This document shows, one piece after another, positions 42,245 to 43,771 of a stretch of 64,000 nt of DNA. Position numbers and translations under genes: made by a program. Origin of the DNA: an uncultured Eubacterium sp. (GTDB lineage Bacteria > Bacillota > Clostridia > Peptostreptococcales > Anaerovoracaceae). The notes under the pieces were generated by a model. It was not told the DNA's origin. It was given only the letters and a program-made list of their open reading frames with translations, and did not search any database. The stretch's first letter is position 1, and every line of letters starts with the position of its first letter. The stretch spans positions 1,953-65,952 of the forward strand of contig CALCFD010000051.1 in NCBI GenBank assembly GCA_937900695.1, given 5' to 3'.

Positions 42245-43771
42245 ATGGAAATTTTGTCTAAAATTCTGCCTTTCGTACCTATTGTGATTGGAGTAGCTCT
42301 TATTCTAATTATTTTAGCTACTGGTTATCTAAAGGCTCCGCCTGATGTTGCTTATGTAATTTCTGGCATTAGGAAAAAGCCTCGTATTTTAGTGGGGCAG
42401 GCAGGTATTAGAGTTCCATTTTTTGAACGAGTTGATAAGCTCGCTCTTGGTGCAATCCAAATTGATGTAAAGACATCTAGTGCTGTTCCTACTGCCGAGT
42501 ATATCAATGTTCGTGTTGATTCTAATGTTAATGTTCGTGTTGGCCAAAGTCTTGAGATGATCGAGCTTGCTTGTCAGAACTTCCTCAATCTTCCAAGAGA
42601 AGAGATTAACCGTAAGGTAAGAGATCTTCTTGAGGGCAATGTTCGTGAAATTATCGGACAGATGAAGTTGACAGAAATGGTCTCTGATCGTAAGGCTTTC
42701 TCTGAGAAGGTTCAGGAAAACGCAGTACCTGATCTGGCCCGCTTTGGCTTGGAGTTGGTAAGCTTCAATGTGCAAAACTTCATGGATGAAAATGGAGTCA
42801 TTGAAAACCTTGGTATTGACAATGTTGAGCAGATTCGCAAGAAGGCGGCTATCGCCAAGTCTGATGCTCAGCGCGAGATTGCCATTGCCGAGGCTGAAAA
42901 TGCTAAGGCCTCTAATGATGCTAAGGTTAAGGCCGCAGAGGAAATTGCTAAGCGCAATAACGATCTAGCAATTAAGCAGGCAGAATTGAAGCAAGAGTCT
43001 GATACTAAGCAGGCTCAGGCTGATGCTGCTATGGCTATCGAGGCTGAGAACCAGCGCAAGGCTAAGGAAATTGCTTTTGCTAATGCTAATTTGGCTAAGC
43101 AGGAAAAAGAGATTGAGTTGAAAGAGCGCGAAGTTGTTATTAAAGAGCGAGCTCTTGAGGCTGAGATCAAGAAGACTGCTGAAGCTAAGAAGTATGCTGA
43201 ACAGCAGGATGCCGATGCTAAATTGTATGCCACTCAGCGAGCTGCTGAAGCTGATCTGTTCGAACGTGAACGTCAAGCAGAGGCTGCTAAAATTGAGGCT
43301 GAGAAGAAGGCTGAAGCCGAGAAGGCTCTAGCTGATGCCCTAAAGGTTAAAGCCCTTGCGGAAGCAGAAGGCGAAAGAGCAAAGGGCGAAGCAGAAGCCG
43401 CAGCAATTCGTGCTAAGGCAGAAGCAGAGGCAGAAGGCCTAATGAAGAAGGCTGAAGCTATGAAGCAGTATGGAGAGGCTGCTATGGCTGATATGAGACT
43501 TGAAGCTATGAAGGCTTATTTTGAACAGCTGCCTGCAATCGCTAAGGCAGTTGGCGAAGGTTATCATGGAGTTGACAAGATTGTTATGCTTGGTAATGAT
43601 GCTGGCCAACTCGCGGGAAATATTATGAATACCACTACCCAAATTTCTGAGGGCTTAAGCGAGTCTCTTGGGATTGATCTGAAGACTCTGCTTGCAGGAT
43701 TTATCGGTGGCAAGATGGGTTCTGATAGTCACAGACCCATTACCGTAAATGTTGACTCTGTGACAGAGTAA
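42245..43771 (+). CDS. SPFH/band-7 flotillin-like membrane protein with long Ala/Glu/Lys coiled coil
   Basis: N-terminal TM helix, SPFH core (..VPFFERVDKL..IDVKTS..), EAxxKA repeat coiled coil. 508 aa, no TAG. Confidence 0.65.
   Translation: MEILSKILPFVPIVIGVALILIILATGYLKAPPDVAYVISGIRKKPRILVGQAGIRVPFFERVDKLALGAIQIDVKTSSAVPTAEYINVRVDSNVNVRVGQSLEMIELACQNFLNLPREEINRKVRDLLEGNVREIIGQMKLTEMVSDRKAFSEKVQENAVPDLARFGLELVSFNVQNFMDENGVIENLGIDNVEQIRKKAAIAKSDAQREIAIAEAENAKASNDAKVKAAEEIAKRNNDLAIKQAELKQESDTKQAQADAAMAIEAENQRKAKEIAFANANLAKQEKEIELKEREVVIKERALEAEIKKTAEAKKYAEQQDADAKLYATQRAAEADLFERERQAEAAKIEAEKKAEAEKALADALKVKALAEAEGERAKGEAEAAAIRAKAEAEAEGLMKKAEAMKQYGEAAMADMRLEAMKAYFEQLPAIAKAVGEGYHGVDKIVMLGNDAGQLAGNIMNTTTQISEGLSESLGIDLKTLLAGFIGGKMGSDSHRPITVNVDSVTE

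Follow-up and report, generated by a model that had tools for sequence, protein, structure and literature searches.

A full-length flotillin gene in an exchangeable SPFH cassette of a TAG-recoded phage genome

The window considered here – 64,000 nucleotides of contig CALCFD010000051.1 (GenBank assembly GCA_937900695.1, filed under an uncultured Eubacterium sp.) – is a phage genome that reads TAG as an amino acid. At 42245–43771 on its + strand lies a single long open reading frame (ORF), preceded by an AAGGAG ribosome-binding site 11 nt upstream, which with high confidence can be said to encode a phage-borne, full-length flotillin of the bacterial type. A first-pass annotation, made from the letters of the sequence, had already described the product as a phage-encoded, flotillin-like SPFH protein, and the phage nature of the window is now established. 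The gene and the parts of its product are laid out as follows:

42245–43771, + strand: coding sequence of the flotillin (a FloT-like SPFH scaffold), 508 aa, with an ATG start and a TAA stop
42263–42325, + strand: N-terminal hydrophobic membrane anchor, aa 7–27, ILPFVPIVIGVALILIILATG, recognised by hydropathy, with a helix predicted at aa 10–27
42344–42871, + strand: SPFH/Band_7 domain, aa 34–209 (Pfam E 1.5e-17; pLDDT 82–94 over most of it)
42797–43561, + strand: long helices rich in Ala, Glu and Lys, aa 185–291 and 308–439, placed by composition, AlphaFold2 and alignment with flotillin-1
43562–43768, + strand: C-terminal flotillin-type region and poorly conserved tail, aa 440–508, aligned up to flotillin-1 residue 416

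Both the N-terminal transmembrane helix and the band-7/SPFH core proposed by that annotation are borne out: residues 7–27 reach a Kyte–Doolittle mean of 3.03 over 19 residues, and the Pfam family Band_7 (PF01145) matches at 64.6 bits against a gathering cut-off of 23.6. The very long coiled coil that it described holds up with minor corrections. An Ala/Glu/Lys-rich helical stretch of about 240 residues is present (A, E and K make up 54–74% of aa 201–400, and aa 201–350 contain neither Pro nor Gly), but the supposed EAxxKA repeat is not, the literal motif occurring once and AEA/EAE 13 times. These helices align with those of flotillin-1 that line the flotillin cage, and in the solved complexes flotillin-type helices make up the wall of the cage and are not a coiled coil of the classical two-stranded kind. 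For the Ala/Glu region, recent expansion by tandem repeats is ruled out, as the DNA contains no such repeats. The C-terminal tail is only 10–16% identical among homologues.

The sole match in an NCBIfam scan is FloT (NF058507; aa 44–486, 237.3 bits), which does not reach the equivalog cut-off of 700 bits, and neither HflK (TIGR01933) nor HflC (TIGR01932) matched in the same scan; judged by these scores, the phage protein is a member of the flotillin family and not an equivalog of Bacillus subtilis FloT. The Pfam family Flot (PF15975) scores 24.9 bits against a gathering cut-off of 27, and is listed in the precomputed annotation of an identical protein, P0001, and of most orthologues. A sequence search of the PDB returned human flotillin-1 and flotillin-2 as best matches (E 1.2e-44), the alignment with flotillin-1 being collinear across aa 32–325 (SPFH domain and first helix) and 353–479 (second helix and C-terminal domain). 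An AlphaFold2 monomer model, built from a 48-sequence alignment (overall pLDDT 74.5), shows the anchor helix, an alpha/beta SPFH domain (pLDDT 82–94) and two helices of 107 and 132 residues. The structural comparison with flotillin and HflK that had been suggested at the outset places flotillin complex chains first (9l3g_A and 9bq2_B; Foldseek E ~1e-21, 429–462 columns, 26–28% identity), with HflK/C, prohibitin, stomatin, QmcA and erlin at lower ranks and major vault protein (MVP) further down. The alternative that the annotation had itself raised, a tape-measure-like or other structural coiled-coil protein, is ruled out: nothing tape-measure-like was found, no PHROG family matched the flotillin, and the neighbours are RNA-repair, PhoH and replication genes. 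None of the PADLOC defence-system models matched the flotillin either.

The main new result concerns the position of the gene, which is an exchangeable cassette extending from the end of an upstream metallophosphoesterase gene (MPE3) to the flotillin's own terminator. Its two boundaries are:

41491–42048, + strand: metallophosphoesterase (MPE3; Pfam), whose 3′ end is the left boundary of the variable slot
43777–43804, + strand: intrinsic terminator (12-bp stem, 4-nt loop, T-run), 5 nt past the stop codon, the right boundary of the cassette

MPE3 ends at an in-frame TAG (42046–42048), with possible read-through to 42168. In close relatives with flanks of 78–95% nucleotide identity, homology is lost at the MPE3 end and regained just past the terminator; with relatives that have no flotillin, it ends at about 41855–42029. 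The closest relatives of the window (L166–L168, the L-numbers being labels of the compared loci; flanks 80–95% identical in nucleotides) are among those without flotillin, and carry a TAG-containing homing-endonuclease-like gene between the MPE3 end and the terminator position. The three phages nearest to the window by PhoH identity have three different slot contents. Across 62 PhoH-anchored viral loci with enough upstream sequence, the slot holds:

flotillin: 37 of 62 loci
short SPFH proteins: 7 of 62 loci
an HflK + HflC pair: 1 of 62 loci (L213)
a homing-endonuclease-like gene only: 4 of 62 loci
no SPFH gene: 13 of 62 loci

Five different SPFH genes, drawn from four families – flotillin, two families of short SPFH proteins and HflK/HflC – are thus found in one slot. 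All the replacement SPFH genes are free of TAG, each has its own terminator (a hairpin with a T-run, of differing sequence), and the breakpoints coincide. The short proteins are three distinct genes, two of them 61% identical, in two families that are 25% identical to each other; every one matches Band_7 (1e-24 to 1e-27) and has an N-terminal hydrophobic segment. They are not truncated flotillins, having no SPFH-domain similarity to flotillin. The pair in L213 passes the TIGRFAM equivalog cut-offs for both HflK (213.3 against 159.4 bits) and HflC (171 against 134.4 bits). As other SPFH subfamilies fill the same slot, the phage would benefit from an SPFH cage generically and not from flotillin specifically; as the cassette is dispensable in some lineages, it is a fitness factor and not a core gene. 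A xanthine/uracil permease gene also occurs in the slot, alone in L194 (4689–5966) and together with a short SPFH gene in L196 (3860–5143) and L207.

A large protein database holds more than 120 flotillin clusters at 82–100% identity, on contigs syntenic with the window, and the identical protein P0001 sits in a 36-member cluster; more than 40 large viral contigs have an orthologue, 50–90% identical, in the same syntenic position. IMG/VR yields 80 flotillin loci at 44–80% identity, about half of which share the synteny of the window. The family as a whole is large (4319 clusters at 50% identity, E < 1e-3), and the phage protein is a viral newcomer to this known family, in a viral setting that has not been studied before. 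We found no paper describing phage flotillins, in a literature search that was incomplete, so that an earlier mention is possible; on phage SPFH proteins more generally, it returned only passing annotations and a suggestion concerning Kayvirus MbpS.

Among cellular proteins, the flotillins of Ruminococcus flavefaciens and other Oscillospiraceae come nearest (53–57% identity, isolate genomes included), and they lie in ordinary chromosomal context; no NfeD-like ORF appears among the listed neighbours of the R. flavefaciens homologue, which were not scanned with profiles. Two higher-scoring matches labelled as metagenome-assembled genomes (MAGs) cluster with the phage flotillins, one of them (L086) in a phage-like context, and they look like mis-binned phage contigs. 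The sequence similarity to these cellular homologues points to Firmicute hosts, which have also been guessed in a preprint (bioRxiv 10.1101/2023.11.10.566534).

Between phage subclades, dN/dS is 0.03–0.12 with dS saturated, and an alignment of 166 flotillins from phages and Ruminococcus has 105 positions, distributed over every domain, with conservation of 95% or more; in-frame TAG is absent from all 30 representative orthologues. To judge from these patterns of substitution, these phages have long had the gene, which is functional and under the same kind of constraint as its cellular relatives. Recent transfer, whether from host to phage or from phage to phage, is ruled out as the source of the 90% protein identity to the L001 group: with the nucleotides only 79% identical and dS at saturation, the similarity of the proteins reflects constraint. 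The window flotillin has its closest counterpart in a lineage with a gyrase of only 32–42% identity, which makes the backbone a mosaic. Host-to-phage transfers were not counted from the neighbour-joining tree, which is midpoint-rooted without an outgroup.

Among known systems, FloT (YuaG) of B. subtilis and the flotillins of Ruminococcus and other Oscillospiraceae belong to the same class of about 500 aa and have the same architecture as the phage protein. Compared with FloT, the latter differs in being encoded by a phage, in its score (237 against 700 bits), in having no NfeD gene found next to it, in belonging to an operon-like unit with RNA-repair-type enzymes and in being exchangeable with other SPFH genes. 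An adjacent NfeD gene is typical of many bacterial SPFH loci, if not universal. Human flotillin-1 and flotillin-2 (9bq2, 9l3g) are collinear with the phage protein in sequence and are its best structural matches; by homology with them, the phage flotillin is expected to form a membrane-attached dome, as the human complex does (PMC11260169, PMC13000311). Unlike it, however, the human proteins have no transmembrane-like N-terminus, depend on acylation and form hetero-oligomers, whereas the single flotillin gene of the window would give a homo-oligomer or a mixed assembly with the host flotillin; and the monomer model fails to reproduce the extended helices of the human complex (RMSD about 80 Å). 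HflK/HflC–FtsH shares the superfamily and the cage principle, and an HflK + HflC pair sits in the identical slot of L213, but this is a two-protein system whose SPFH domains are periplasmic in Escherichia coli, and pairwise similarity between the phage flotillin and the L213 proteins is limited to the low-complexity helix. Other SPFH-domain membrane proteins of phages – Kayvirus MbpS, Vi01-like gp200 and the proteins of Xanthomonas phage X1 and Vibrio phage KIT04 – are short, stomatin-like or distant, and none is of the full-length FloT type; the ‘flotillin family protein’ of KIT04 is 22% identical over 32% of the query.

The genes and signals around the cassette are the following:

40913–40941, + strand: sigma-70-like promoter, TTGATA-17-TATAAT (11 of 12 positions, by consensus match only), upstream of the AAA_33 gene
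40961–41494, + strand: AAA_33/KTI12-like P-loop kinase, TAG-free, a conserved upstream neighbour (Pfam, synteny)
43805–43884, + strand: conserved intergenic block, an invariant CG...CCG followed by CAAATTTTTT, where homology with relatives resumes
43885–43913, + strand: conserved extended −10 promoter for the next gene, TTGATT-17-TGnTATAAT, conserved in relatives
43945–44406, + strand: conserved downstream gene of unknown function, 153 aa with TAG read-through at codon 137
44452–44685, + strand: conserved protein of 77 aa, with a single hydrophobic helix and a tail of acidic character, kept in 12 representative loci

The syntenic gene order runs metallophosphoesterase, AAA_33 kinase, metallophosphoesterase, flotillin, two small conserved genes, PIN-PhoH, cell-wall hydrolases and gyrase, and genes of the kind used in host takeover or counter-defence (RNA repair, NAD salvage) surround the cassette. 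The AAA_33 promoter recurs in the close relatives L166, L169 and L041, and from its position it likely starts a transcription unit that ends with flotillin. No conserved promoter directly upstream of flotillin was found among the orthologue loci, and a strong hairpin with a T-run follows the flotillin stop codon at a distance of a few bases in every syntenic locus, its sequence differing from locus to locus; with its own terminator, the AAA_33 promoter upstream and no conserved promoter directly before it, flotillin is most likely the last gene of this host-type-promoter unit. The terminator and the separate promoter behind it uncouple flotillin from the TAG-containing genes downstream. The intergenic block between the two may serve for the binding of a regulator or, at the edge of the cassette, as a substrate for recombination; RNAalifold gave no consensus fold for it, and Rfam returned only a chance-level match on the terminator.

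In 15 representative loci, the first downstream gene keeps its place; its product is 98% identical to the orthologue P0271, of 153 aa, and the model of this product (pLDDT 87) combines a three-stranded sheet with a long helical hairpin. The product has no Pfam match and no significant PDB match, which leaves an NfeD- or PspA-like partner role for it unsupported. The 77-aa protein is holin-like in form only, no Pfam or PHROG family having matched it. In L001–L004 and L166–L168, an NAD-salvage block (nicotinamidase, phosphoribosyltransferases, NAMPT, NAD synthase, NADAR) with Thg1 sits between the RNA ligase and phosphoesterase genes; at that position in the window, it is absent.

In a second tight group of phages (28 loci, 48% identity; labelled L045–L075 and L085, e.g. 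L050 at 11464–12198), flotillin directly follows NAD-salvage genes and is itself followed, 15 nt on, by a membrane-anchored PspA/IM30-like protein. All ten members of this PspA-like family match PF04012 (best E 5.5e-7), and the assignment, which draws on sub-threshold to moderate Pfam matches across the family, is best worded as PspA-like. No PspA-like gene was matched in the window. Flotillin–PspA adjacency is not a general feature, for divergent PspA-like homologues adjoin TerD and P-type ATPase genes instead: in L249–L252, one to three TerD genes come before them, joined at three of these four loci by a P-type cation ATPase. This arrangement suggests envelope-stress modules. In B. subtilis, the SPFH protein YdjI ties PspA to the membrane (PMC8581546), the same pairing of SPFH and PspA/IM30 proteins as in the second phage group, YdjI being, however, a short SPFH protein and not a flotillin.

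The genetic code of the phage bears on when the flotillin could be made. The window has 28 tRNA genes (9512–28029), including one with a CTA anticodon, an amber suppressor, at 26916–26990, and its + strand ORFs contain 107 in-frame TAGs; reading TAG as sense restores PhoH, the lysozyme/amidase and several homing-endonuclease-like ORFs. The TAGs cluster in the genes for the lysin, PhoH and the homing-endonuclease-like proteins; flotillin, the MVP-like gene, DUF2828, gyrase and ligase have none. The flotillin is free of in-frame TAG, as the first-pass annotation had noted: none of its 23 Gln-type codons is TAG, against 19% across the ORFs of the window (P about 0.008). The window also has replication genes, a gene for a Sak4-like protein and members of other PHROG families. 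Megablast of 20 kb of the window against INPHARED gave no match, and a tblastn search turned up no more than 10 phage records, with 54% as the highest identity; the relatives of the window are IMG/VR viral contigs of up to 402 kb.

How might such a protein serve a phage? The physiological role of bacterial flotillins and other SPFH proteins, widespread as they are, is debated, and their mutants are mild. Our preferred reading, for which belief and doubt are about evenly balanced, is that the phage protein, including its identity as a flotillin, is an accessory SPFH membrane scaffold that would uphold host membrane homeostasis during infection. From the gene layout, flotillin would be transcribed together with the AAA_33 kinase and the metallophosphoesterase from the host-type promoter, transcription ending at its own terminator. 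Free of TAG, it could be translated by unmodified host machinery, early and from a standard-code mRNA, before the suppressor tRNA of the phage switches the code. By homology, its N-terminal helix would anchor it in the cytoplasmic membrane of the host. There, on the pattern of the 44-mer flotillin cage that has been solved, SPFH domains and about 240 residues of Ala/Glu-rich helix would oligomerise into a dome that is attached to the membrane and encloses a part of it. What the phage would gain, to go by the comparative genomics, is that the membrane homeostasis of the host is maintained or reprogrammed in the course of a long infection, possibly by way of membrane fluidity, envelope-stress tolerance and/or FtsH-dependent membrane-protein quality control.

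A good deal weighs against this account. Everything in it beyond the flotillin identity is inferred, and the early expression of TAG-free genes is a published proposal that is assumed to hold for this phage. No NfeD partner matched in the neighbouring ORFs scanned around flotillin. The PspA-like member in L050 scores 14.5 bits against a PF04012 gathering cut-off of 33.9, and a PDB sequence-profile search with the PspA-like partner found neither PspA nor Vipp1. The slot is without an SPFH gene – holding a homing-endonuclease-like gene or permease cargo, or empty – in 17 of the 62 loci, and may simply be a hotspot for accessory genes; since the loci are related to each other, moreover, the slot counts are not independent events. 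E. coli HflK/C faces the periplasm, whereas bacterial flotillins are held to face the cytoplasm, and with such a difference in topology the swapped proteins may not be functionally equivalent. Genomes with an empty slot could, for their part, hold an SPFH gene elsewhere.

Tentatively, the scaffold reading can be taken further, to a version in which the SPFH subfamilies would be interchangeable in a dedicated phage slot and their cages would act on one shared target – a possibility that we rate on the unlikely side. The target would most plausibly be FtsH-dependent quality control, or envelope-stress repair with PspA-like proteins. Up to the time of lysis, the cage would preserve an intact membrane, or one that withstands membrane-targeting abortive infection. 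Were this so, these phages would amount to a natural genetic system for finding what bacterial SPFH cages do.

A more specific version of the scaffold idea has the SPFH cage, whatever its type, trapping or gating the host membrane protease FtsH, which would protect membrane or regulatory proteins of the phage or rewire the turnover of host membrane proteins. It is helped by the genuine hflK and hflC genes in the same slot of the related phage L213, and by the solved HflK/C cages that enclose FtsH (7wi3 and 9cz2, both among the structural matches). Prohibitins scaffold the mitochondrial homologues of FtsH, and B. subtilis flotillins reportedly co-purify with FtsH and affect it, so that FtsH is the client most widely shared among SPFH subfamilies. 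Yet HflK/C fills the slot in just one of the 62 anchored loci, nothing ties cages of the flotillin type structurally to FtsH, the topologies of HflK/C and flotillin probably differ, and no FtsH-related gene or known FtsH substrate was identified nearby. We regard FtsH control, all told, as rather improbable.

The scaffold might instead serve counter-defence or exclusion, steadying the membrane against depolarising or perforating abortive-infection effectors, or blocking the entry of superinfecting phage DNA. The company it keeps is that of host takeover, the relatives carrying RNA-repair genes (RNA ligase, kinase, phosphoesterase, Thg1) and an NAD-salvage block (nicotinamidase, NAMPT, NAD synthase, NADAR, Macro); patchy presence and the swapping of cassettes among close relatives are typical of arms-race genes; and in the second phage group flotillin is paired with a PspA-like membrane-repair protein. 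Such a role nonetheless looks doubtful to us, given the lack of a PADLOC match and a pattern of selection (dN/dS 0.03–0.12, 105 positions shared with host flotillins) unlike the usual fast evolution of an arms race; nor do we know of any anti-defence protein in the SPFH family.

Less credible again is a scaffold for lysis or secretion, in which flotillin would organise holin, endolysin or Sec components and so set the timing of lysis. The 77-aa single-helix protein, an NAGPA/SPOR protein and the lysozyme/amidase do lie 0.7–3 kb downstream of flotillin in all syntenic loci, and an analogy is offered by the SPFH protein MbpS of Kayvirus, which adjoins a holin-like protein between two lytic enzymes and for which a lysis role was suggested (PMC7150955). 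Here, however, the conserved terminator and the separate promoter uncouple flotillin from the genes that follow, a PIN-PhoH gene lies between it and the lysis genes, and in the second phage group it stands among NAD-salvage genes and not near lysis genes; the 12 TAG codons of the downstream lysin, against none in flotillin, suggest different phases of expression.

That flotillin is a mere passenger – a recently captured host gene without a role in the phage, or mis-assembled or mis-binned bacterial DNA – could be argued from its GC3 (0.37, against 0.18–0.30 in its neighbours), its preference for CAG over CAA and its absence from some close relatives, but conservation and selection effectively refute it, the evidence being an unchanged position in dozens of viral contigs that were assembled independently from many samples, saturated synonymous sites with dN/dS of 0.03–0.12, an identical protein in a 36-member cluster, same-strand phage flanks with conserved regulatory signals, and a closest cellular homologue only 53–57% identical.

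Strong purifying selection and the repeated replacement of one SPFH gene by another at a single locus suggest that, as in the membrane-scaffold reading, the cage confers a concrete, selectable benefit during infection, and the flotillin, HflK/C, short-SPFH and no-cassette variants on near-identical backbones form a ready-made comparison set. The roles proposed by the first-pass annotation – membrane remodelling, compartmentalisation or an anti-defence scaffold – are speculation that the comparative data narrow without proving any of them. Membrane-scaffold genes in any case join NAD salvage, RNA repair and the reported MVP-like protein in the host-takeover repertoire of large gut and rumen phages, and flotillin adds to the TAG-free genes known from TAG-recoded genomes.

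The MVP-like gene, placed by the same annotation within 12 kb of flotillin, is real, and starts 11.5 kb upstream of the flotillin start:

30786–33215, + strand: MVP-like protein (MVP_shoulder 4e-18, Vault_3 2.7e-8)

It is also found upstream of flotillin in L035 and L042. The two proteins are not close paralogues (BLASTP E 0.18), and all that speaks for cooperation between them is that they occur together in one clade. Directly upstream of the MVP-like gene, at 28878–30383, lies a gene for a DUF2828/DUF7788 protein (phrog_850, ‘RNA-binding protein’), with which the MVP-like protein may form a vault-like ribonucleoprotein pair. MVPs of human-gut phages had already been described in the 2023 preprint cited above (bioRxiv 10.1101/2023.11.10.566534), which does not mention flotillin and whose authors found no TEP1 homologue by BLASTp. 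GC3 is raised in flotillin (0.37), DUF2828 (0.45) and, marginally, the MVP-like gene (0.32), compared with 0.18–0.30 in most other genes, and these three prefer CAG over CAA, unlike most of the genome; the bias may reflect foreign origin or a distinct expression class.

A set of TAG-rich paralogues (4326–5261, 28092–28841 and 39391–40113) has repeated Cys-rich motifs and an endonuclease-like C-terminus, and GIY-YIG-like ORFs lie at 16443–17216, 55316–56245 and 57633–58301; both kinds are likely homing endonucleases. It is a member of the Cys-rich, TAG-rich type that replaces flotillin in L166–L168 and L171.

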